Shown here: positions 3,436 through 54,746 of the stretch, piece after piece
Layout: every line of letters starts with the position of its first letter
Position numbering within the stretch: position 1 is the first letter of the stretch
NCBI GenBank assembly: GCA_964367745.1
Contig: CAYIYK010000002.1
Coordinates: 4,447-68,446 of the forward strand
DNA: 64,000 bases
Source: an uncultured Candidatus Saccharibacteria bacterium
Lineage (GTDB): Bacteria > Patescibacteriota > Minisyncoccia > Phycocordibacterales > PALSA-1337
Reading direction: 5' to 3'
Position numbers and translations under genes: made by a program
The notes under the pieces: model-generated
Seen by the model: only the letters and a program-made list of their open reading frames with translations
Told to the model about the DNA's origin: nothing
The model's database searches: none

Positions 3436-3888
3436 TCATCTTGTTACTGATATATCTGGGTTAATTTCACCCACAGCACTTACCTTTACTCTACCGTCAC
3501 TATCCTGAGATATTTGATATTTCGTATCATAATCAGATATACTCACAAACTTTGCACCAGTCTTTGATGGGTCAAATGGTAATGAAGAAACATAGGTCGG
3601 TACTAAACATGAAGCTATATCGGAATCACCTAAGATATTTGAAATATTTTTTGATGTACTTGCCAGAGAAACACTACATTGGAATATCCCTCTATTCTCT
3701 GCCATGTTTTGACCTACAGCATTCAATATAGCAGTGACATTTGCAACTCTTTGCGAATCCCTAGCGAGTTTGAATTGTCTTGCGGGGTTAATAGCCACAA
3801 GCACAACAGCTGCCAAAACGGCAATTATTCCGATCACAACCAAAATTTCAATCAAAGTAAAACCTCTTTTATTTTTATTATATTTTGT
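3436..3888 (-). CDS. pilA: Type IV pilin (major pilin candidate) with prepilin class III signal
   Basis: MTKYNKNKRG|FTLIEILVVIGIIAVLAAVV is the canonical G-FTLIE prepilin cleavage/methylation motif. The ORF-track start at 3936 adds 16 extra residues; the start at MTKY (3888) is more likely. Confidence 0.75.
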   Translation of the reverse strand, partial: TKYNKNKRGFTLIEILVVIGIIAVLAAVVLVAINPARQFKLARDSQRVANVTAILNAVGQNMAENRGIFQCSVSLASTSKNISNILGDSDIASCLVPTYVSSLPFDPSKTGAKFVSISDYDTKYQISQDSDGRVKVSAVGEINPDISVTR

Positions 3889-4004
3889 CATTAAATTTAA
3901 ATTAATTAATAATAGACAAATAATAATCCAATCCAATAAATTCCATTTAAAATAAAAATGAAATCTAAATGAAATTTTTATTAAAATTTCATTTATTAGA
4001 TAAT

Positions 4005-4391
4005 TTATTGAACTAATTCCAATCTATTATCATATAACTTAACTTTTGCAGTTCTATTTATATTAACACCTTTATAATCGCCTTGAGATTCAATCACAAT
4101 AACTCCATCAAAATCATATACCTTTATTATCTTACAATTTAAATATTCAATTTTAATCGGATTATTTGTCCTAAAGAAATAGTCCGATGAAAGTCTTAGC
4201 GTCGCTTGATCAATACAACTGTATGCATTGTAATAATTCATCAATCTATATTCCTTTGTTATTACTTGGTCAAAGAAGGAAGCAATCTCAATGGATTGTA
4301 AATAAGAAAAAGCTAATAACATACTAGAAACTACTATCACTAGCGTAATCGATACAAATCCCTGGTTGTAGTATTTATTTATCCTAATCAT
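4005..4391 (-). CDS. PilX-like minor pilin / pseudopilin (prepilin-like N-terminus without Glu5)
   Basis: NQG|FVSITLVIVVSSMLLAF N-terminal hydrophobic helix after a Gly; sits inside the pilus locus. Confidence 0.4.
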   Translation of the reverse strand: MIRINKYYNQGFVSITLVIVVSSMLLAFSYLQSIEIASFFDQVITKEYRLMNYYNAYSCIDQATLRLSSDYFFRTNNPIKIEYLNCKIIKVYDFDGVIVIESQGDYKGVNINRTAKVKLYDNRLELVQ

Positions 4392-4551
4392 GAAAATTCT
4401 TTATTAATATCTTATAGTCTTCATCTTTTAAAATAGGTCTCTTTTGTTGTGTGTACAAAGTTCCGACGATCGAAGAAAACACCCCAAGGATAAGTAAGGA
4501 GAGGAGACTAATATACAGAATCGTTTCAATTAGTGAAAAACCTTTATTCAT
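4384..4551 (-). CDS. Unannotated 55-aa mini-prepilin (MNKG|FSLIETILYISLLSLLILGVFSSIVG...)
   Basis: I translated the 4551->4384 minus-strand frame by hand: ATG at 4549-4551 (rc), stop TAG at 4384-4386 (rc). It carries a perfect class III signal (KG-FSLIE, Glu at +5) and overlaps the end of the upstream large pilin gene by about 8 nt. It is below the 60-aa cutoff of the ORF track. Confidence 0.5.
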   Translation of the reverse strand: MNKGFSLIETILYISLLSLLILGVFSSIVGTLYTQQKRPILKDEDYKILIKNFHD

Positions 4552-5848
4552 TCTTTTTTAGAAATAAGAATCCACTACTGTCCCCTGTTGCAAAGAAAAT
4601 ATTGTTATTATCGCAGACCATTTTGACTGGACTTGAACCTAGCCCGATATCAGATACTTTATTCATCGACTCAGTATCGAGTACTTGGAATTCTTTACCA
4701 TTATTATGAGTTAGTGTAAGAACATATTTGTCTCTTAGCAATAATCCATATACTCCTCCTGCAATATCTTTCGATTTCATGGGAGTAGATGTGGGAAAAA
4801 TAAATAGTTCATGATTTGCTTGAACATTAAAACCTCCAACTGTTCTACCTAGTGCAATAGCACTTTCAAATGATTCTAGTATTTTACCTTCTTGGGTTTG
4901 CCAACCTGATGGAGAGAATGAATTTATTAATATTGGATTATTAGGATTTGAAACGTCCAACACTCTCATTTGTTTCTCATCGGATGAAGCGATGTAAGCT
5001 TTATTATCGATAACCAAAATATCATTTATTAAAGTATTAGTCTCAAAACTTCCTACAACTACAGGATTATACGGATCTTGTACTGACACTATGGATAGTT
5101 CATAACCATTCCATTTCTCAGTACCAAGATAAATATACCCCTTTGAATAATGTATTGACGAAGCGAATGGAGGAGTTGTGCTTGATGTTGGTAAAGGTAG
5201 TTTAATCTGCGAAATCAATTTTGGATTGAACCTATCGTGTATATCAAGTACCTGTAATTGATTTATTGTGCTTGCTTGAGCCAAGTATACATAAGGTCCA
5301 ACCACTTCAAGTGAGGATACTCCAGGCCCAGTATTTATTGATGAAATAAGCTTAATACTATTAATGTCATTTACATCAAAAATAAAGAAATCACTCTTGC
5401 TTGATATACTCGAATCAGCAGATAAATAGACAATATTGTTTCTTACCTCAATGTCGGTACTAAGATTTGATATACCTATATCAATATTGTTTTGACGTAA
5501 ATTATAATCTTTAAAATCAAATTTTAATTTTGGATCACAATAGGTCTTTCCCCACGAATCTACAAAGTTTGTTTTTGAGATACTAAATAATTTATTAAAA
5601 AATATCTTAGTATAATTCCCATAATAAGTATCCTCGAGATTGGTAATATTTAAAATATCTTTAGACAAAGCTTCCATAGTATTTAGTTCCTCTATAGACC
5701 ATAACTTCATTTTAGGTATTGAAGAATTAAGAGTAAAAGTTGTTATTGTAAACAGAACAAAGAGCGAAAAAGAAATCATGATTTCTACAGTCAGGAACCC
5801 TTTATTTGATTTGATAAATTTATTTCGAAATATGATTGGTGATTTCAT
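4544..5848 (-). CDS. Large prepilin-like protein (minor pilin/tip-adhesin candidate) with repeated beta-propeller-like (LVIVD-type) segments
   Basis: N-terminus MKSPIIFRNKFIKSNKG|FLTVEIMISFSLFVLF matches the G-F-x-x-x-E prepilin motif. Repeated segments such as LVIDNKAYIASSDEKQMRVLDVSNPNNP, VYLAQASTINQLQVLDIHDRFNP and IYLGTEKWNGYELSIVSVQDPYNP look like propeller blades. Start adjusted from 5887 to the internal Met. Confidence 0.55.
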   Translation of the reverse strand: MKSPIIFRNKFIKSNKGFLTVEIMISFSLFVLFTITTFTLNSSIPKMKLWSIEELNTMEALSKDILNITNLEDTYYGNYTKIFFNKLFSISKTNFVDSWGKTYCDPKLKFDFKDYNLRQNNIDIGISNLSTDIEVRNNIVYLSADSSISSKSDFFIFDVNDINSIKLISSINTGPGVSSLEVVGPYVYLAQASTINQLQVLDIHDRFNPKLISQIKLPLPTSSTTPPFASSIHYSKGYIYLGTEKWNGYELSIVSVQDPYNPVVVGSFETNTLINDILVIDNKAYIASSDEKQMRVLDVSNPNNPILINSFSPSGWQTQEGKILESFESAIALGRTVGGFNVQANHELFIFPTSTPMKSKDIAGGVYGLLLRDKYVLTLTHNNGKEFQVLDTESMNKVSDIGLGSSPVKMVCDNNNIFFATGDSSGFLFLKKNE

Positions 5849-6896
5849 ATACAGGCAGAATGATAGATAGAGCAATAGAACCGACAATTAACCCCATTAA
5901 GACCATAAGTACAGGTTCGATAAGTGAAGAGAATCTTTTAAGAACGTTATCTATATCTTGTTCAAAAATCCGTGAGCAATGACCGAACATCTCTCCCAGA
6001 TTTCCTGATTTCTCTCCGAGAGACAACATATCGATTAGGATAGTTGGGAAAAAGTCTTTATGTTTATTTATAGAATTCGACAGTGATATACCCTTTATTG
6101 AATCGTTATATATTCCTTCATATATTATTTTATAAAACAAATTGTTAGTTGATTCTTTATAGAACAATAAAATATCAGTTAGTCCTTTGCCGGAGGATAA
6201 AAGCATTTCCCCCATCCGGCATGCTGATATCATATCGTTTGTAACAATATAGTTTGATAATATTGGAATTTTGGTAATAATTTTCTGAATCTTTAGGCGA
6301 ATAAATTCATATTTTTTAAACAAAAAATTGAATGATATAGATAATAGTACGAGTAGAATCACAACCACAACTCCCTTTGAAATCAGAAAATAATATATAG
6401 ATTGAACTATCCTAGTTATTAACGGTAGTTGTATATTTAGACTTGAGAGTAGAGGTATTATCTTAGGAAATATATAAAGGATGAGAAATAACGTCATTAG
6501 TATAGTAGCGACGACTATGAACGATGGGTAAACTAGTGAGCTGATGATTTTTTTCTTAATATCATTTTTCTTTTCTAGAAACAAATAAGCTTGGTTTAGT
6601 GATTGAGACAATCTTCCACCCTCTTCACCGTTTTTAATGAGTACGATCAGTAGATGATCAAATCTTAATCCGAGGTTCTTAATACTTCTAGCAAGTGGCA
6701 TACCCTTCTCAAGATCAGAAATTATATGAGAATAGACTTCCTTTCTTTTTATATTTTTATCTATATTTCTCATCACATAAAGAGATTCAACCAACGAAGT
6801 ATTTGATTCAAGTAATATAGACAACCTTTGAGCAAAAAATATTTGATCGGATAGATTAAAAGAATTATTTTTAATTTTATTTATTTTATTATTCAT
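5820..6896 (-). CDS. pilC: Type IV pilus assembly platform protein PilC (GspF family)
   Basis: Polytopic membrane protein with two GspF-like repeats; its ends overlap pilB and the pilin gene, indicating an operon. Confidence 0.75.
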   Translation of the reverse strand: MNNKINKIKNNSFNLSDQIFFAQRLSILLESNTSLVESLYVMRNIDKNIKRKEVYSHIISDLEKGMPLARSIKNLGLRFDHLLIVLIKNGEEGGRLSQSLNQAYLFLEKKNDIKKKIISSLVYPSFIVVATILMTLFLILYIFPKIIPLLSSLNIQLPLITRIVQSIYYFLISKGVVVVILLVLLSISFNFLFKKYEFIRLKIQKIITKIPILSNYIVTNDMISACRMGEMLLSSGKGLTDILLFYKESTNNLFYKIIYEGIYNDSIKGISLSNSINKHKDFFPTILIDMLSLGEKSGNLGEMFGHCSRIFEQDIDNVLKRFSSLIEPVLMVLMGLIVGSIALSIILPVYEITNHISK

Positions 6897-8025
6897 GTAG
6901 TATTCTCAATATTTCGTCTTGAGTAGTAATTCCCTTTTCTACCTTTTCCATCCCATCCTCGTACATAGTTCTCATTCCTTTGCTTTTTGCATATCTAGAA
7001 ATCTCATTCATCGGTGTTCTAGACATTATGTATTTCCTTAATTCATCATCTATTACAAGAGTTTCAGAGACAACAACTCTTCCCCTAAAACCCAAATCTC
7101 CGCATTCTCGGCACCCGCAACCAGCCCCTTTGCATTTTCCGCAGATCTTTCTCACTAGCCTTTGGGCAATAACTAAAGAAAGAGTTGAAGCAACTAGATA
7201 GGGGTCTATACCCATATCTATTAGCCTCAAAATCGCACCGAGAGATGAATTCGTATGTAGAGTAGATAGAAGTAGATGACCTGTTAAAGAAATATTCGTG
7301 GCTATCTGTGCAGTTTCTGTATCTCTAATTTCTCCGACCATTATGATATCTGGATCTTGTCTGACTATTGATCTAAGACCATTAGCAAAATTTATTCCAT
7401 GTCTAGTCTGAATCTGTATTTGTCTTACTTCTGGTATCGCATACTCTATCGGATCTTCTAAGGTTATTATTGAATTCTTTCCATTTGATAATAGCGAAAG
7501 CAAGGTATATAAGGTTGATGTCTTACCTGATCCAGTAGGTCCAGTTACAAGCACCATTCCCTGGTGATACGACAGACAACCGACTATTCTATCAATGTCA
7601 TGTTCTGAGAATCCCAGATCTCCAAGTTTTGGTATATCACTATCACTTCTTAATATTCTCATTACTGCATTTTCACCATGATGAGTTGGTATTATCGACA
7701 CTCTTATATCACAATCACAAATATTTTTGGCAAATCTAAACCTCCCATCTTGTGGTACAAAATGTATATCCGTTCTAAGTCCCGACAAAACCTTTATTCT
7801 AGATATGAGCTCGTCGTGAGATATATCCTGTAAACTATCTATATAAGTTAATATCCCATCGATTCTAAACTTAATTACTACACTATCCTTTGTAGGATCG
7901 ATATGTATATCAGAAGAATTCCTATAGTAAGCATAAGTAATAATAGAATCGACGAGCTCAACTATCGACCTTATATCATGCAATGTTTTTTCATTTTCAG
8001 TTATTTTATATTGTTTTTCTTGCAT
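6889..8025 (-). CDS. pilB: Type IV pilus assembly ATPase PilB/GspE family
   Basis: Walker A motif GPTGSGKTST, Asp box, Walker B, and a tetracysteine motif CGKCKGAGCGCRECGDLG. Start taken at MQEKQ (ATG at 8023-8025 rc) rather than the ORF-track 8058. Confidence 0.85.
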   Translation of the reverse strand: MQEKQYKITENEKTLHDIRSIVELVDSIITYAYYRNSSDIHIDPTKDSVVIKFRIDGILTYIDSLQDISHDELISRIKVLSGLRTDIHFVPQDGRFRFAKNICDCDIRVSIIPTHHGENAVMRILRSDSDIPKLGDLGFSEHDIDRIVGCLSYHQGMVLVTGPTGSGKTSTLYTLLSLLSNGKNSIITLEDPIEYAIPEVRQIQIQTRHGINFANGLRSIVRQDPDIIMVGEIRDTETAQIATNISLTGHLLLSTLHTNSSLGAILRLIDMGIDPYLVASTLSLVIAQRLVRKICGKCKGAGCGCRECGDLGFRGRVVVSETLVIDDELRKYIMSRTPMNEISRYAKSKGMRTMYEDGMEKVEKGITTQDEILRILHE

Positions 8026-8046
8026 GCAAAAAGAATAACAACACTC

Positions 8047-8088
8047 AATAAAATTCAAATAAAATAATAATAAAATCCGGATAAAATT
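8047..8088. promoter_or_regulatory. Phased A-tract motif (ATAAAAT x4 at about 10-11 bp spacing) immediately upstream of pilB; related copies at 26616-26657 and 34408-34450
   Basis: Copies compared by eye: ATAAAATTCAAATAAAATAATAATAAAATCCGGATAAAAT versus ATAAAATCTATTTAAAATCTAAATAAAATTGGAATAAAAT versus ATAAAATCCATATAAAAACAGAATAAAATTGAAATAAAAA. Confidence 0.35.
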
Positions 8089-8256
8089 CCCTTTTTCTGT
8101 GGAAAAGTTTAACTTTTATTCCAAAATACCCTTGTTTATAAACATAGTTGCTATTGCACTTTTTTTATTGTATATTACTCTCTGGCTGTTCTTTTCGTTT
8201 TTTAATGATTGGAAATACAGTCAAGAATGTAAATCTACGAAAAAATTAGTAGGATT

Positions 8257-14317: not shown

Positions 14318-14689
14318 TTAGTTTGGAACTGTTGGAGGACGAGGAAGTTTAATATTATCTACTGTAGTAGGTTGTGCTGGTTGACCAAATTTAAATGAAT
14401 TCGTAAGTAGGAATACCAATCCCCAAATAGAAAGTATTACGAAAAGTCCTATAACTCCATAAAGTATAGATTGTCCTCCCTTCTTTCGAGCTTCTTCATC
14501 ATCTGCACCTAGAACTAGATACTTCACAACACTAACTATAATCCAAAGTACTGCAAGTGATATTGCAATCTTAATAATAAGGTCACCGATATTCGTTGCC
14601 TTTTGTGCAACTGAGTCAATATCTGTAAGTGTTTGTGCGAATGCAAATACTGGTGTAGATGCAAGTACAAATGCTATAAGTTTCTTCAT
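14318..14689 (-). CDS. VirB2/TrbC-like small secreted two-TM protein (paralog 5)
   Basis: Signal peptide MKKLIAFVLASTPVFAFA|Q; TM1; loop GADDEEARKKGGQS; TM2. About 85% identical to the next paralog. Confidence 0.45.
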   Translation of the reverse strand: MKKLIAFVLASTPVFAFAQTLTDIDSVAQKATNIGDLIIKIAISLAVLWIIVSVVKYLVLGADDEEARKKGGQSILYGVIGLFVILSIWGLVFLLTNSFKFGQPAQPTTVDNIKLPRPPTVPN

Positions 14690-14772
14690 AAAAATATAAT
14701 AATAATTGATTAATAGTAACGTAGGAATTATAACAACAATATATTTTATCTACAAATAGGTATGTGGATATA

Positions 14773-15198
14773 CTATTTTCCTGGATATGGACCGTTTACA
14801 CCTGGAATAAGAGGTCCTCCATCGACACCTCTAGGTGATGGCGAGGTTCCACCATCTATTCTTACACTATCAAAACTAGGTCTTTGGGTAGTCGTAAATC
14901 TGAATGAATTTGTAAGTAGTGATACTAAACCCCAAATCGACAAGATCACAAAAAAACCAATAACTCCATAAAGTATAGATTGTCCTCCCTTCTTTCGTGC
15001 TTCTTCATCATCTGCACCGACTATAAGATACCTGACCACACTCACAACAATCCAAAGTACAGCAAAAGCAATAGCAAGCTTGATTATAAGATCACCAATA
15101 TTTGTTGCTTTTTGTGCAACACTATTTATGTCTCTTAAAGTTTGAGCAAATGATATACTCGGCAATAATGTTAATAGTAAAATAATTATTTTTTTCAT
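14773..15198 (-). CDS. VirB2/TrbC-like small secreted two-TM protein (paralog 4) with a Gly/Pro-rich C-terminal tail
   Basis: Signal peptide MKKIIILLLTLLPSISFA|Q; same GADDEEARKKGGQS loop; tail PSPRGVDGGPLIPGVNGPYPGK. Start adjusted to the internal Met. Confidence 0.45.
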   Translation of the reverse strand: MKKIIILLLTLLPSISFAQTLRDINSVAQKATNIGDLIIKLAIAFAVLWIVVSVVRYLIVGADDEEARKKGGQSILYGVIGFFVILSIWGLVSLLTNSFRFTTTQRPSFDSVRIDGGTSPSPRGVDGGPLIPGVNGPYPGK

Positions 15199-15202
15199 AT
15201 TT

Positions 15203-15580
15203 TTATTCTGGATTTGTAATAGTTCCACTTTGACCTCCTGTACCTGGTATACCTATATCTTTGAGTGCTGCAGGTTTTTGGTTTTCAAGATCGAATGTAT
15301 TCTTCAACAATGCAACCAATCCCCAGAATGAAAGAATCACAAAAAAACCAATAACACTAAAAAGTACGTATTTACCTGCTTCTACCTTATCCTTTTCTGT
15401 AAAGAAATATAGATAAACATTCCATACGAATGTAACTACAGCAAAAGCAATTATTAGTCCTAGTCCAATGTTCAAATAATCAACCACAATTGAAGCTATA
15501 TATTTTAAATCCTTCCCTACTGCAAAAGTGATGCTTGGTAGTAATGATATTAATGCAATTCCAATTTTTATTTTATTCAT
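15203..15580 (-). CDS. VirB2/TrbC-like small secreted two-TM protein (paralog 3)
   Basis: Signal peptide ...SITFA|VG; two TM helices; tail GIPGTGGQSGTITNPE. Confidence 0.4.
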   Translation of the reverse strand: MNKIKIGIALISLLPSITFAVGKDLKYIASIVVDYLNIGLGLIIAFAVVTFVWNVYLYFFTEKDKVEAGKYVLFSVIGFFVILSFWGLVALLKNTFDLENQKPAALKDIGIPGTGGQSGTITNPE

Positions 15581-15588
15581 ATTATTAA

Positions 15589-16029
15589 TTATTTTAATAG
15601 TTCTTCATTTACTAATCCTGATGATGCAAGAGTATTTCTTACAACCTCTACGATCACCTTGGAACTAATAAGTATCGCAGTGCCTATAATAGCTGCAGTA
15701 AACCATTCTTTTGCTTTATCAATCTCTCCTGGATTACCTTGAGCCATTACTAGTTTGAATCCTACCCAGATAAAAGTAAAAACAGCAACAATAGATCCTA
15801 TAAAGATAGCGAAATCAACCAAAGATAATAATAGATCTTTTAGGTTTTTTGCTTTTATTGGGTTTTCAAGCTTTATCATTTTTGCTGGTGGATTTGATGT
15901 ATTAGATCCTGTTCCAGGTGGAACTGGTGTAGTTGCTCCTGTTCCAGGAGGAACCTGTGCAAAAGCAAATGTTCCAGTAAATGATACAAGTATAGCTATC
16001 AAAGTAGAAAATATTATTTTTTTATTCAT
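15589..16029 (-). CDS. VirB2/TrbC-like small secreted two-TM protein (paralog 2) with a Pro/Gly/Thr-rich N-terminal region
   Basis: Signal peptide ...FAFA|QVPPGTGATTPVPPGTGSNTSNPP, then two TM helices. Confidence 0.4.
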   Translation of the reverse strand: MNKKIIFSTLIAILVSFTGTFAFAQVPPGTGATTPVPPGTGSNTSNPPAKMIKLENPIKAKNLKDLLLSLVDFAIFIGSIVAVFTFIWVGFKLVMAQGNPGEIDKAKEWFTAAIIGTAILISSKVIVEVVRNTLASSGLVNEELLK

Positions 16030-16034
16030 TATAT

Positions 16035-16457
16035 TTATTTACCAATAAAAATATCGAAACCGGAATTCTTTTCAACAAACCAATCGACTACAGTTATCAC
16101 TGCTATCCAAGCTACAAGCATAATTATAAACCCATAAGCCACCGATTGGAAGATGCTCCTTGCCGTCTCTATCTTACCTGGGACTCCAGTCATATACATG
16201 ATACCGGCGTAAGCAAAAGCTACTGTTGCAATAGGTATAGTTATGTAGAATAACCAACTAATAGCAGACCTTACAGTTTCCATAAGTGCATTGAAGTCAC
16301 AGACTTTTTGTCTTTCTGTTTCTCCCGGAGTAATAACTCCATCACACTTAACAAGACCACTATAATCTAGTTTCTCTTGAGCAAAACTGAAGCTTGGTAG
16401 TATTGATATTGCCAAGATTATAATAAGTGCGATTTTTTTAATATTTTTATTTATCAT
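16035..16457 (-). CDS. VirB2/TrbC-like small secreted two-TM protein (paralog 1), contains a Cys pair
   Basis: Signal peptide ...SFSFA|QEK; CDGVITPGETERQKVCD; two TM helices. Confidence 0.4.
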   Translation of the reverse strand: MINKNIKKIALIIILAISILPSFSFAQEKLDYSGLVKCDGVITPGETERQKVCDFNALMETVRSAISWLFYITIPIATVAFAYAGIMYMTGVPGKIETARSIFQSVAYGFIIMLVAWIAVITVVDWFVEKNSGFDIFIGK

Positions 16458-26594: not shown

Positions 26595-26682
26595 CTACCA
26601 AACTTAGCAAACCGAGATAAAATCTATTTAAAATCTAAATAAAATTGGAATAAAATACTGTATTGCTATTATTTAGACCTGT

Positions 26683-34290: not shown

Positions 34291-34316
34291 CCTCCTTCGG
34301 GAGGTTTTGTGTTTAT
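34291..34316 (+). terminator. Rho-independent terminator on the plus strand (no plus-strand CDS upstream)
   Basis: cctcc-ttcg-ggagg followed by TTTTGTGTTTAT; a TTGACA-16-TGaTAATAT promoter lies at 34181-34208. Confidence 0.5.
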
Positions 34317-34440
34317 TCTTTCATAATGCTGAAAAAATGTAGGTTAACATTATTTAATTTCTTTATTTCTTCCATTTTTCCCTCCATTACCCAACCCTAA
34401 CAAATCGAAATAAAATCCATATAAAAACAGAATAAAATTG

Positions 34441-34468
34441 AAATAAAAAAACAGCGCGAACGCTGTTT
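34441..34468 (-). terminator. Terminator of the desaturase gene
   Basis: acagcg-cgaa-cgctgt followed by a T-run on the minus strand (forward A-run 34441-34450). Confidence 0.7.
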
Positions 34469-51186: not shown

Positions 51187-52200
51187 TTATTTCTTTCGCA
51201 ATACCACCCTCTTCACAGCCTCGCGTATATGACTTTCACCCATTTCATAATGTTCAATCAACTCTTCAGGTGTACCCGATTGGCCAAATTTATCTTTTAC
51301 TCCAATGAATTCTATAGGTGCTGGATAATGCTTTGCTAAACATTCAGAAACAGCTGATCCCATACCTCCTGCAATCTGATGCTCTTCAACTGTAACTATT
51401 GCACCAGTCTCATGTGCCAATCTCCACACTGCTTCTTCATCCAATGGCTTTATTGTACTTAAATTTAGAACTTTTACTCTCAAGCCCAATTTCTCTCCTT
51501 CTTTTTCAAAATTTTCCGCAACTTTCAAAGCTTTATAGACAAGTGAACCAGTAACAATTATTCCGACATCGGCCTTTTTATCTCCTTTTGGAGAAAAAAG
51601 TAATTGCGCTTTACCTATTTCAAATGGACTATCTTCTGTAGTTATAACTGGAGTTTTTTCTCTAGCGAGTCTTATATATGTTGGAAACTTTGTTTTTGCA
51701 CAAGCTAACGTCGCTTTCTTTGCTTCTATAGAATCACAAGGTGAGATAACTATCATGTTTGGTATAACACGAGTTATTGCTAAATCCTCAATTGCTTGAT
51801 GAGTTCCTCCGTCTGGGCCAACAGAAATTCCAGCGTGTGAACCAGCTATCTTAACTGGTCGATCGTTGTAACATATTGTAGTACGTATTTGCTCCCAATT
51901 TCTTCCTGGACTAAACATTGCATAAGAAGTCATAAAAGGGATTTTACCCATCGCAGCCATACCTGAAGCAACACTAGCAAGGTTTTGTTCTGCGACACCG
52001 ATCTCTACGAATCTATCTGGGAATTTTTGTTTAAATAGATTCATATATGTTGAATCAGTAAGATCAGCACAAAGACCAACCACGTTTTTATCCAATTCAG
52101 CAGATTTCAAAAGTCCTTCTCCAAATCCTTTACGTATAGGAACTTGCTCAACATCTTTATCGAAAAGTTTTGGATTTAATTTTTGAATTGGATTTATCAT
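51187..52200 (-). CDS. tktC: Transketolase, C-terminal (pyrimidine-binding) subunit
   Basis: FVEIGVAEQNLASVASGMAAMGKIPF...AGSHAGISVGPDGGTHQAIEDLAITRVIPNMIV. Confidence 0.85.
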   Translation of the reverse strand: MINPIQKLNPKLFDKDVEQVPIRKGFGEGLLKSAELDKNVVGLCADLTDSTYMNLFKQKFPDRFVEIGVAEQNLASVASGMAAMGKIPFMTSYAMFSPGRNWEQIRTTICYNDRPVKIAGSHAGISVGPDGGTHQAIEDLAITRVIPNMIVISPCDSIEAKKATLACAKTKFPTYIRLAREKTPVITTEDSPFEIGKAQLLFSPKGDKKADVGIIVTGSLVYKALKVAENFEKEGEKLGLRVKVLNLSTIKPLDEEAVWRLAHETGAIVTVEEHQIAGGMGSAVSECLAKHYPAPIEFIGVKDKFGQSGTPEELIEHYEMGESHIREAVKRVVLRKK

Positions 52201-52664
52201 AAATAATAAATTAAAATAATAGAAAAAAATAAGAAAGATGAAATTCCAAAAACAAAAAATGTCAAAGTGATCAGATTTAATAAATTGATAATTTTCTCTA
52301 AGTAACTATTTTTACTTTTTTCAACAGAGATATTATATTCTTTAACACTGACGTCGGGTTGCCTAATCATACTATTAAGATCCTCAAAAAGATATTTATT
52401 ATTTAACCTACTTAAATAATAATTTATCGCCTCAAATACGATTGTTATTGAAAGAAATAACCAAGTAATTATTAATAATCTTTTTGAACACTCGGCAACA
52501 AGGTAAGGTTTAGCTAAAAAAAGAGTCACCGATACCCCTATTACACCAGTAGACACATTTAAAATAAGTTTTGATAATTGACTATCTGAATATTTCATAA
52601 TATCAATACACCTAACCTGCTGATCTTTCATAAATTGTTTTAAATTGTAATCTTGATCTAGCAT
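52197..52664 (-). CDS. Hypothetical membrane protein (3-4 TM)
   Basis: Hydrophobic ORF overlapping the tktC start. Confidence 0.45.
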   Translation of the reverse strand: MLDQDYNLKQFMKDQQVRCIDIMKYSDSQLSKLILNVSTGVIGVSVTLFLAKPYLVAECSKRLLIITWLFLSITIVFEAINYYLSRLNNKYLFEDLNSMIRQPDVSVKEYNISVEKSKNSYLEKIINLLNLITLTFFVFGISSFLFFSIILIYYL

Positions 52665-52670
52665 ATAATT

Positions 52671-52961
52671 TTAACTAAACAAAAATACAAATATAGAAAA
52701 TGAGCATAGTAATACTCCTTCTATTCTTCTTATCACTATTTCTCTTTTTGATAATTCATAACCATAACTCTGCTTTTTATTAAAAAACAAAAAAATTCCA
52801 AGGACAGCACATACCAAAAGATACGATATTAAAAAAGGATAAGGTACTGTTTCAGCTTTAATAGAATAAATAGATCCGAATAAGAATAAAATTTTAAGAA
52901 CTATTTCAAATATCTTCATGCTGTAATTATACCCTATTTTTAAGAAACTTTTTACCTTCAA
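52671..52961 (-). CDS. Hypothetical small membrane protein
   Basis: Hydrophobic ORF. Confidence 0.4.
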   Translation of the reverse strand: MKVKSFLKIGYNYSMKIFEIVLKILFLFGSIYSIKAETVPYPFLISYLLVCAVLGIFLFFNKKQSYGYELSKREIVIRRIEGVLLCSFSIFVFLFS

Positions 52962-53763
52962 CCTTTAATCTCCTATCAACTTTTTTAATATCCTCTTCAG
53001 CCGGCAGAGCTTCCGGTCTAATTCCACTTTTACCCAATAACTCTCTTACATTTTTATTATTCTTAACATGCTCATTTATAATCGGATTCTCTCCTCGAAT
53101 ATATGCGTCCCGCTTGAGAGTAAAGTTTGTAATTTCATTTGCCATGTCTTTAGCTTTTACAGTTATTGCTGGTAAAAAATCAGCAAGGGCTCTTGAGGTA
53201 GGAACATTTAATTTCTTCTTCATATCTAAGGTCGTCTTACCTCCAAACAAAGCCTCATCTCCTTTACTTCTAATTTTAGCAAAACCTATACTATCCACAC
53301 CCCTCTCATATAATATTCCTGAAAGTTCTTTTTCGGAATTTGAGAGTTTCTCGCGAAAAACTAATCTTTCAATCTCAGACAACCTTTTCTCCACTAATTC
53401 TTGCTTGCGAGTTTGAATTGCAAAGTAAGCCATTGCAAAAGCTATTGGTTCTTTGCTTGGATCTCCATTTTGGGCAATTAGGTAACAAGCATGCCGGGTT
53501 AGTGCGTAATCATTAATAGTCATTTTTGAACCTTTGCCACCGGTGATGCCTTTGCTGACGTCAGCAAAGTGATCAGTGGTAACAAGTCCTGTCTTATCAC
53601 ATGCTATTTTAGCTTTATCTATGACCTTTTGAAAATTCCTCCACTGATCATACCCCAGTAATCCTTGCAAATCTCTCGCAAACCAAAACTCTAAACCATC
53701 TTCTGTTTTATGTACATAATCATTAAAACTCTTATGTAGACTTTTTACTATTTCTTGTTTCAT
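52927..53763 (-). CDS. dinD: DNA-damage-inducible protein D (DinD) / RhuM-family (Bro-N-like) protein
   Basis: EFWFARDLQGLLGYDQWRNFQKVIDKAKIAC aligns with E. coli DinD EFWSARELAPLLDYRDWRNFQKVLARATQAC. Also ...LTRHACYLIAQNGDPSKEPIAFAMAYFAIQTRKQEL matches ...[36 protein letters not shown]. Confidence 0.75.
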   Translation of the reverse strand: MKQEIVKSLHKSFNDYVHKTEDGLEFWFARDLQGLLGYDQWRNFQKVIDKAKIACDKTGLVTTDHFADVSKGITGGKGSKMTINDYALTRHACYLIAQNGDPSKEPIAFAMAYFAIQTRKQELVEKRLSEIERLVFREKLSNSEKELSGILYERGVDSIGFAKIRSKGDEALFGGKTTLDMKKKLNVPTSRALADFLPAITVKAKDMANEITNFTLKRDAYIRGENPIINEHVKNNKNVRELLGKSGIRPEALPAEEDIKKVDRRLKVEGKKFLKNRV

Positions 53764-53888: not shown

Positions 53889-54746
53889 TTATTTAATTTT
53901 AACCCCAAAAGCATTCGTCGCTATTTCTATCTCTTCCGGTGTTGTCGGTGGTTTGCCATGCCATTCATATTTTCTTTCGAATTCCCGAATTCCTTTTGAA
54001 GATATTGTATTTGCTATAATCACCGATGGTTTATCAAACACCGCTTGAGCTTGTCCCCAAGCTGCATCAATATCTCTGAAGTTATGTCCATCAACTTCTT
54101 GTACATGCCAGTTGAAAGCTCTCCATTTATCTCCTAGAGGATTTAAAGGCATTATATCTTCTGTAAAACCGTCTATCTGAATATTATTTCTATCAACTAT
54201 CACTGTTAGATTCTGTATTTTCTCTTTGCCAGCGAGCATTATCGCTTCCCAATTTTGTCCTTCATTCAGTTCCCCATCTCCAAGAAGGCAGATAAATTGT
54301 TTTCCGGATGTCTTTCCAAGATTCATTTTTTCAGCTAAAGCCATACCTACAGCTTGAGATAGTCCTGAACCAAGGGGTCCAGAAGAATTCTCAAGCATTG
54401 GCAAATATTCACGATGTGGATGTCCCTGTAAACGACTTCCGAATTTTCTTAAAGTATTTAATTCTGATACTGGGAAATATCCTGCATGAGCCATAGTTGC
54501 ATATAGTACTGGACATATATGCCCATTTGAAAGTATCAATCTATCCCTATATTCCCAATTCGGTTTCTTTGGATCATGTCTCATTGCATGAAAAAATAGA
54601 TAGGTAAAAATATCTGCCATATCTAGAGGTCCAGCAGTATGACCGGACTTAGCATGTATGAGCATTTCTATTATCGAACCTCTTATTGCATAAGCTTTTT
54701 CAAAAAGAAATTTGGCTTTTTCATCTGTTAAAGGTTGAACTGGCAT
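53889..54746 (-). CDS. tktN: Transketolase, N-terminal (TPP-binding) subunit
   Basis: GHTAGPL...GSRLQGHPH...GPLGSGLSQAVGMA...GDGELNEGQNWEA. Confidence 0.85.
   Translation of the reverse strand: MPVQPLTDEKAKFLFEKAYAIRGSIIEMLIHAKSGHTAGPLDMADIFTYLFFHAMRHDPKKPNWEYRDRLILSNGHICPVLYATMAHAGYFPVSELNTLRKFGSRLQGHPHREYLPMLENSSGPLGSGLSQAVGMALAEKMNLGKTSGKQFICLLGDGELNEGQNWEAIMLAGKEKIQNLTVIVDRNNIQIDGFTEDIMPLNPLGDKWRAFNWHVQEVDGHNFRDIDAAWGQAQAVFDKPSVIIANTISSKGIREFERKYEWHGKPPTTPEEIEIATNAFGVKIK

Follow-up and report, generated by a model that had tools for sequence, protein, structure and literature searches.

A conserved type IV pilus-like operon of Paceibacteria encoding a predicted propeller-bearing prepilin and a headless mini-prepilin

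The locus described here lies in a 64,000-nucleotide (nt) stretch of DNA deposited from an uncultured Candidatus Saccharibacteria bacterium (assembly GCA_964367745.1, contig CAYIYK010000002.1, positions 4,447 to 68,446; hereafter the window). Sequence analysis confirmed that the minus strand from 8089 to 3436 carries a type IV pilus-like filament operon. The original prediction had described a pilB-pilC-type operon followed by four pilin-type genes, and this anatomy was borne out by the open reading frames (ORFs), all six of which are present, by profile matches and by conservation. Judged from related genomes, the locus is a conserved type IV filament (T4F) operon of the Paceibacteria. By analogy with known systems, we think it reasonably probable that three of the products are minor pilins forming a minimal priming and tip complex that presents a beta-propeller, with a mini-pilin serving as adaptor or spacer. 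Confidence is far higher for the anatomy at gene level than for the order of the subunits or the spacer role. The features of the locus are as follows:

6889–8025, minus strand: extension ATPase (pilB), 378 amino acids (aa), start ATG at 8025
5820–6896, minus strand: platform protein, 358 aa
4544–5848, minus strand: modular propeller prepilin, 434 aa, start ATG at 5848
4384–4551, minus strand: stick-only mini-prepilin, 55 aa
4005–4391, minus strand: Glu5-less pilin-like protein, 128 aa
3436–3891, minus strand: major pilin candidate, 151 aa, start ATG at 3891
8046–8089, minus strand: repeat array upstream of pilB, four phased 11-nt direct repeats
3947–3992, minus strand: repeat array between the gene for the 128-aa protein and the major pilin gene, phased 11-nt TTTYAT repeats and an inverted copy

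From pilB through the gene for the 128-aa protein, the overlaps between neighbouring genes measure, in order, 8, 29, 8 and 8 nt. The platform gene starts 8 nt inside the end of pilB, and the mini-prepilin gene overlaps each of its neighbours by 8 nt at junctions which read ATGAATAA and ATGATTAG. The spacer between the gene for the 128-aa protein and the major pilin gene measures 113 nt. A terminator scan of the region found none, and a promoter scan gave background levels. No second ATPase, platform or pilin gene was found elsewhere in the window. The window had also been said to contain no prepilin peptidase, and the search for the peptidase A24 motif agreed: it was detected neither there nor in any of 80 related loci.

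These 80 loci were gathered from GTDB assemblies, one genome per species, with the propeller pilin as probe. The order of ATPase, platform protein, propeller pilin, mini-pilin and 128-aa protein is kept in essentially all of them, and in about half a major pilin, with its own repeat array, follows the cassette. The nearest relatives, all of them metagenome-assembled, are Paceibacteria-type Patescibacteria, namely Taylorbacteria, Nomurabacteria and Paceibacterota.

The 55-aa ORF begins with the prepilin signal MNKG/FSLIE (MNKG/FSLIETILYISLLSLLILGVF, the slash marking the cleavage site), which leaves a mature product of 51 aa, and it passes the Pfam N_methyl profile (PF07963) with 22.9 bits against a gathering score of 21.2. 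A small pilin-like ORF lies directly after the propeller gene in all 79 loci for which the downstream region was available; a strict motif detected it in 76, a wider search window added L033, and L057 and L080 are variants. Conservation was taken from this synteny because the word-indexed homologue search is weak on short proteins (five matches for the 55-aa and 19 for the 128-aa protein). The mini-pilin is a separate gene in 68 loci, with a mature length of 31–53 aa (median 46); in L027, L029 and L030 the C-terminal part is further shortened (31–43 aa mature). Glu5, Tyr9, Leu-Leu-Ser at positions 12–14 and Gly19 are invariant or nearly so, Glu5 being invariant in 69 aligned homologues, and the C-terminal motif separates two clades, DYxxLIxNFHE, which includes the window protein, and IxLxxEIxDAY. 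Comparison with the closest relative (L001) gave dN = 0.112 and dS = 1.38, hence an omega (dN/dS) of 0.08, which marks purifying selection, and this value, together with the conserved motifs, rules out a chance ORF. The profile match, the synteny and the dN/dS ratio thus uphold the proposal that the ORF is a conserved gene with a prepilin signal.

That the gene is unannotated also proved correct for this genome. Its exact product is absent from a collection of 15 billion proteins in which the products of both neighbouring genes are present, from the same NCBI contig of 78 kb, which indicates that the gene caller missed it; two Logan contigs of identical DNA have an uncalled gap exactly over the gene. 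Relatives are called in some JGI data, where they are named PulJ, PulG or hypothetical.

Since the alpha-1 helix of pilins comprises about 50 residues (PMC10191384), the mature mini-pilin has the length of alpha-1 alone, with no room for a head. The original description of it as far shorter than typical pilins can be sharpened in this sense: the lollipop of alpha-1 and globular head is missing from its sequence, and the product reads as a headless pilin. It is not a Flp/Tad pilin, as it has no Flp profile match and its motif is G/FSLIE instead of the Flp-type G/xxxxEY, and neither its sequence nor its profile matched anything in the PDB. Two of the related mini-pilins, in L057 (3568–3783) and L080 (5998–6156), lack Gly-1 (..FL/MTLIELLIY and ..LL/MLIELLLY); these might start directly at Met-x-L-I-E and so need no prepilin peptidase.

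The product of the preceding gene has a 17-aa leader and the class III signal MKSPIIFRNKFIKSNKG/FLTVE. It had been introduced as a 447-aa prepilin with propeller-like repeats; the prepilin-type start and the propeller stand, and the length does not, since 447 aa corresponds to the maximal ORF from a TTG start. The 434-aa version from the ATG at 5848 matches the homologues in length, and public data contain a called gene with exactly this sequence. Across 36 aligned family members (44–72% identity), Glu+5 (Glu22) is invariant, Gly-1 and Phe+1 are conserved in the consensus, and C104 and C412 are invariant. LVIVD repeats (PF08309, which we take to be the same as IPR013211) were matched in 34 of the 36 members (best 1.3e-14), the window protein itself scoring 18.8 bits, just under the 20.2-bit threshold.

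An AlphaFold2 model built from this alignment (pLDDT 89.1, pTM 0.82) shows a disordered leader of 17 residues, a 49-residue helix (18–66) which starts exactly at Phe+1, a small three-stranded sheet (72–93) and a propeller from about residue 115 to 432. The secondary-structure list contains 28 strands, which we read as seven four-stranded blades, so that structure prediction, the check that had been suggested for this protein, yielded a seven-bladed propeller. With a pilin module and a separately folding propeller, the predicted protein is a modular pilin in the sense of Raynaud et al. 2021. Foldseek against the PDB returned generic 7- and 8-bladed propellers only (TM-score 0.5–0.7), among them the designed Tako8, beta-TrCP, RACK1 and BamB, while profile and sequence searches of the PDB with the family gave no match. 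No protein of the locus matched the Pfam PilY1/Neisseria_PilC families.

A profile search of 1.84 billion representative proteins for relatives of the propeller pilin gave, among the best 150 matches to the propeller profile, about a hundred full-length clusters at 50% identity (420–530 aa). All named members of the family are labelled "hypothetical". Four database homologues (P0015, P0030, P0054 and P0120) are annotated from an internal Met just before Glu5 (M-x-E-I-M...), which removes the leader and the Gly-Phe site; a systematic start error of this kind hides the pilin nature of the family. Other matches are giant proteins of 2,000–6,900 aa with 10–29 separate propeller-profile matches each (P0149–P0152, P0161, P0235 and others), and these have the look of LVIVD surface proteins with several propellers, related to the module of the pilin. 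An unusual degree of conservation marks the propeller pilin's leader, MK[SL][QP]II... (alignment A1, columns 1–11). The first 29 nt of the gene (5820–5848, minus strand) double, in a second frame, as the 3' end of the platform gene, and this dual coding probably accounts for the conservation.

The N-terminus of the 128-aa protein, MIRINKYYNQG/FVSIT, has Thr at +5 in place of Glu, and the family consensus at the cleavage site is KGF(I/V)A(L/I)T. The protein carries the conserved motif KEYRLMNYYNAYSCIDQA and two invariant cysteines (C59 and C86), and its family is present in 76 loci. AlphaFold2 (pLDDT 81) predicts a long helix (6–69) and a four-stranded sheet, which in the model make up a minimal pilin lollipop. 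At E ≤ 0.1 no Pfam or NCBIfam profile matched, and 15 family members gave nothing relevant at E ≤ 5; profile and sequence searches of the PDB with the family found no match, and Foldseek of the model against the PDB returned nothing below E = 0.19. The label "PilX-like" given to this protein at the outset is therefore withdrawn, there being no PilX_N (PF14341), ComGG or GspK profile match and no fold match. All that it has in common with PilX, GspK, ComGG and PilA of Streptococcus sanguinis is the absence of Glu5 and the position within the operon. We regard it as a Glu5-less pilin-like lollipop of an unclassified family and as a candidate cap subunit.

An N_methyl scan of all four pilin-type proteins, as had been recommended, divided them: the 55-aa ORF and the major pilin matched, and the 434-aa and 128-aa proteins did not. 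For the latter two, the prepilin motif is recognized from conserved residues, operon position and the AlphaFold2 models, not from profiles. Of the three results that would have told against the original prediction, namely no prepilin motif by profile methods, no conservation of the 55-aa ORF and no repeat fold in the propeller protein, none was obtained.

In eight loci the mini-pilin is fused in frame to a protein of the 128-aa type:

L036 3698–4105, L040 5954–6352, L048 5941–6345, L049 5945–6340, L053 5933–6331 and L056 6024–6518: fusions in which the 128-aa part has no beta-sheet
L037 5935–6357 and L078 1905–2447: the other two fusions

The six sheet-less fusions are about 132 aa long (L056: 164 aa), have two hydrophobic helices about 20 residues apart, and are not followed by a major pilin. 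The occurrence of fusions suggests that the mini-pilin and the 128-aa protein act together.

The machinery genes are assigned by strong profile matches. The ATPase matches Pfam T2SSE (E = 3.5e-111) and belongs to superfamily PF00437; within the PilB/GspE/ComGA family, it has a C-terminal tetracysteine motif and lacks the N-terminal N1 domain. That the N-terminal domain is absent follows from the GspE and PilB matches, which begin at model positions 92 and 169, respectively; the ComGA model of NCBIfam is matched over its whole length. All three scores lie below the NCBIfam equivalog cut-offs (GspE 441 vs 630 bits, PilB 387 vs 676 and ComGA 237 vs 300). The match to TadA is weak (6e-14), as against 1e-115 or better for PilB and GspE, and the homologues of the ATPase have 376–378 aa. 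The platform protein, of the PilC/GspF/ComGB family, matches Pfam T2SSF in two stretches (E = 1.8e-41), its NCBIfam matches to GspF, PilC and ComGB being all under the cut-off (ComGB 138 vs 240). The Com pilus equivalog scores (NCBIfam ComGA–ComGG) were likewise all missed, for instance by ComGC with 19.8 vs 75 and by ComGE with 29.9 vs 49.

The major pilin candidate has the N-terminus MTKYNKNKRG/FTLIEILVVIGIIAVLAAVVLVAINPARQFKLARDSQR (MTKYNKNKRG/FTLIEILVVIGIIAVLAAVV). It matches N_methyl (E = 1.4e-9) and TIGR02532 (5.5e-8), and its N-terminus aligns with solved type IV pilins in the PDB, Geopilin of Geobacter among them. These matches favour the role for which it had been put forward; its length of 150 aa needs correction to 151, counted from the ATG at 3891.

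Two of the intergenic segments carry phased 11-nt repeats. Upstream of pilB, four near-perfect units (GAATTTTATCC, GGATTTTATTA, TTATTTTATTT and GAATTTTATTG) end 22 nt before the ATG and are followed by an extended -10-like box, TGTTATTCT (TGnTAnnnT). In the spacer before the major pilin gene (TRF period 11; lag-11 autocorrelation 0.384 vs about 0.31; fold z = -3.1), the array at 3947–3992 forms a 12-bp A/T palindrome with its inverted copy, and probably gives the major pilin a promoter or regulatory site of its own. A reading of the palindrome (3965–3992) as a terminator-like hairpin was dropped, because it belongs to the conserved repeat array. In the whole window TTTYAT-N5-TTTYAT occurs 13 times against 0.57 expected, and arrays of at least three units occur five times against 0.07 in simulations. 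Four of these five arrays stand directly upstream of minus-strand genes, namely pilB, the major pilin gene, a gene for an NYN-domain protein, and a 20-aa ORF followed by a nuclease gene. The latter two are:

26617–26658, minus strand: array upstream of the NYN-domain gene (26594–26082), whose ATG follows 22 nt after the array, as at pilB
34410–34451, minus strand: array upstream of the 20-aa ORF and then of a staphylococcal-nuclease homologue (34179–33640)

The nuclease homologue is of the secreted type and has a lipoprotein-like signal. Right after the array, the 20-aa ORF MEEIKKLNNVNLHFFSIMKE (34313–34375, minus strand) has a strong GGAGGG ribosome-binding site, and between it and the nuclease gene lies a CCTCC-cgaa-GGAGG hairpin (34291–34304); this element may function as a leader peptide, attenuator or small RNA. 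Among the 80 related loci, the arrays occur almost exclusively upstream of pilB, in many at the same distance of 22 nt, and of the major pilin gene. From their sequence and placement, the arrays look like a dedicated promoter class or the site of a regulator. Their presence at two nuclease-type genes may point to a pilus-and-nuclease regulon or to a special promoter class.

Two further observations concern other parts of the window. Five tandem paralogues of 123–151 aa, each with a signal peptide and two transmembrane helices, are encoded at 14318–16457 (minus strand) next to a solute-binding protein gene (17752–16454). Both paralogues tested matched T4SS_pilin (PF18895), one at 5e-9 and the other at 1.5e-4 with 22.2 bits, under the 26.6-bit gathering score; this is a second, unrelated pilin-type family. 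In addition, transketolase appears, from a reading of the translations without a profile search, to be split into halves at 51187–52200 and 53889–54746 (minus strand), with two unrelated ORFs between them, a 155-aa membrane protein (52197–52664) and a 278-aa protein (52927–53763).

How the products of the cassette might work together can be outlined from better-known systems. The extension ATPase and platform protein would be produced by translational coupling with the three minor pilins, and the major pilin from a promoter of its own. A prepilin peptidase, presumably encoded elsewhere in the genome, would process the prepilins, and the subunits would then enter the filament in an order that we infer as follows. 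The 128-aa pilin would be added first and cap the filament: having no Glu5, it could occupy only the topmost position, in which it has no subunit above it with an N-terminus to neutralise. In the same manner GspK, which lacks Glu5, caps the HIJK complex (PMC9934059). The 434-aa pilin would insert by its short pilin module and display the seven-bladed LVIVD propeller as a ligand-binding module. The mini-pilin, a bare alpha-1 after removal of its leader, would extend the helical core below or alongside the propeller; being headless, it would leave room for the bulky domain, thereby solving a steric problem, and would link the tip to the shaft of major pilins. Candidate ligands are the host cell surface, a glycan or DNA. 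A three-minor-pilin tip complex is known from the PilABC proteins of S. sanguinis, in which PilA, without Glu5 and with a signal peptide that the tools do not detect, lends stability to a modular pilin's unusually short pilin moiety (PMC9934059). GspHIJK and PilABC share the logic that the bulk of the complex confines it to the tip (PMC9934059). In the Saccharibacteria strain TM7x, host binding depends on PilX2, a minor pilin with a propeller (PMC11623550), and adhesion is for this reason the default reading of the propeller. The original suggestion of a tip adhesin acting in host interaction thus keeps its propeller-bearing prepilin; the adhesin role itself is drawn by analogy and may be right, with DNA acquisition as an alternative.

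Four observations speak against a tip complex of this kind. First, Pfam N_methyl matches none of the 36 members of the propeller pilin family. Second, the 128-aa family has no detectable relative. Third, a prepilin peptidase, PilM/N/O and a retraction ATPase are absent from the window and from the 80 loci. Finally, given the two-helix topology of the sheet-less fusions, it is difficult to see how both of their halves could be N-in, processed pilins.

Of the other explanations, the one that fares best leaves the anatomy unchanged and makes the filament a competence-type pilus for DNA capture or nucleotide scavenging, the tip binding DNA or anchoring the cell at a DNA source as part of a DNA-acquisition regulon. 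Patescibacteria depend on imported nucleotides, and the arrays found at pilB and the major pilin gene also precede the NYN-domain gene and the staphylococcal-nuclease homologue. The ATPase resembles ComGA in having no N1 domain and in matching the whole ComGA model, and the number of genes is no larger than in a comG operon. However, the equivalog cut-offs for ComGA–ComGF were all missed and GspE and PilB score higher; no comEA, comEC or dprA was recognized among the window ORFs, which were inspected by eye without a profile scan. Moreover, in TM7x the pilus with the propeller pilin plays no part in competence (PMC11623550), the array could be of a general strong-promoter type, and its association with nucleases was observed in a single genome. 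We give this explanation a limited but real chance.

A second alternative concerns the 55-aa protein, which might stay in the membrane and serve the propeller pilin or the 128-aa protein as a pilin-like assembly factor or chaperone, or might be the remnant of a decaying minor pilin. It lacks a head domain, eight loci carry it fused with the 128-aa-type protein, Gly-1 is missing in L057 and L080 with their possible Met-x-L-I-E start, and the C-terminal part is shorter in L027, L029 and L030. Decay is ruled out by the conserved C-terminal motifs, the dN/dS ratio of 0.08 and the presence of the gene in 79 of 79 loci across deep divergence. A role outside the filament sits poorly with the invariance of Glu5, a residue that matters for filament assembly (PMC9934059), and with the fact that short stick-type pilins polymerise elsewhere, as does PilA-N of Geobacter (PMC10191384); we consider this alternative improbable. 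Finally, that the 434-aa protein is a signal-anchored surface LVIVD propeller, co-transcribed with the pilus genes and not polymerised, would agree with the lack of N_methyl matches, with the frequency of LVIVD propellers in very large surface proteins (2,000–6,900 aa) and with the homologues called from a start after the motif (P0015, P0030, P0054 and P0120), but is very unlikely in view of the invariant Glu+5 and conserved Gly-1/Phe+1, the 49-residue helix from +1 with its pilin-like sheet, the fixed place between the platform gene and two pilins in 80 genomes, and a weak ComGE match of the N-terminus (7e-4), the sole profile support for a pilin start.

Compared with systems described before, the proposed tip complex is close in design to PilA-PilB-PilC of S. 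sanguinis (PMC9934059, PMC8179133). Both have three minor pilins encoded together in a monoderm-type type IV pilus (T4P) locus, a member without Glu5 whose signal peptide escapes the prediction tools, modular pilins built on an unusually short pilin moiety, and a proposed role in priming and at the tip. Here, however, only one pilin is modular and carries an LVIVD propeller in place of the vWA or lectin domain, the headless 51-aa pilin has no counterpart in S. sanguinis, and no sequence homology was detected. PilX2 of Nanosynbacter lyticus TM7x, in the thin T4P-2, is likewise a minor pilin of the Patescibacteria with a C-terminal seven-bladed propeller; efficient binding to the host requires it, extrusion of filaments does not (PMC11623550). 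As compared from its description, not its sequence, PilX2 has RCC1 repeats and a non-canonical signal peptide, whereas the present protein has LVIVD repeats and a canonical class III motif with Glu5. The TM7x locus, furthermore, encodes several minor pilins of full size (PilK, PilW2, PilV2, as well as PilZ2), whereas the partners here are two very small proteins.

Modular pilins are widespread according to the census of Raynaud et al. 2021, which lists IPR012902-IPR013211 architectures (PMC8179133, supplementary file 2). Its IPR013211 pilins include those of candidate-phyla bacteria, such as an 860-aa Falkowbacteria protein with 12 copies, and the census describes IPR013211 as a motif of unknown function (PMC8179133). 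A pilin N-terminus fused to LVIVD repeats is thus shared, whereas the present family has a fixed length of about 430 aa, a single propeller and a fixed cassette; since N_methyl/IPR012902 does not detect it, the census probably missed it. The GspH-I-J-K, PilH-I-J-K and ComGD-E-F-G sets resemble the cassette in being minor-pilin operons beside the machinery genes, with a cap lacking Glu5 and a role in priming, but they have four members rather than three; the cassette gives no equivalog-level match, and one of its members is headless. A pilin reduced to an alpha-1 stick of about 60 aa is known from the PilA-N/PilA-C pair of Geobacter (PMC10191384). There PilA-N is the major pilin and receives its head from the adjacent PilA-C, whereas here the stick presumably serves as a minor pilin, and the product of the adjacent gene possesses its own alpha-1. 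The tip adhesin PilY1/PilC of diderm type IVa pili also places a beta-propeller at the pilus tip, presented by minor pilins, but PilY1 is not itself a pilin and is far larger.

A literature search for headless, truncated or stick-only minor pilins found only major pilins of the Geobacter type, and one for LVIVD with pilin, or Parcubacteria with pilin and propeller, yielded nothing beyond the census. LVIVD modular pilins, a propeller minor pilin, three-member tip complexes with a Glu5-less member and stick-only major pilins are known already. The features that we did not find described are a putative headless minor pilin as the fixed partner of a propeller pilin, the five-gene Paceibacteria cassette and the repeat-array promoter. 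With propeller- and LVIVD-bearing pilins already catalogued, the novelty is modest; we see a neat variation on a known design rather than a new kind of machine, useful to specialists on type IV filaments and candidate phyla. A bolder picture, which we hold only tentatively, is that of an undescribed minimal three-subunit tip complex of Paceibacteria, in which an obligatory stick-only pilin would accommodate and dock the propeller pilin under a Glu5-less cap, and in which a dedicated regulator of the TTTYATC arrays would drive the system together with secreted nucleases as a regulon by which these ultra-small bacteria attach and scavenge DNA.

The locus offers a compact and highly conserved target, five coupled genes including a confidently modelled propeller as candidate receptor-binding module, and the shared repeat-array promoter gives a handle for computing the pilus regulon. 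A headless minor pilin would be a useful natural test case for how the tips of type IV filaments fit bulky modules. As this universally co-occurring 55-aa subunit escapes gene callers, the pilin inventories of these lineages are incomplete. Little is understood of the Paceibacteria, which are abundant and uncultured, and pili are the most plausible means by which they attach to hosts and acquire DNA.

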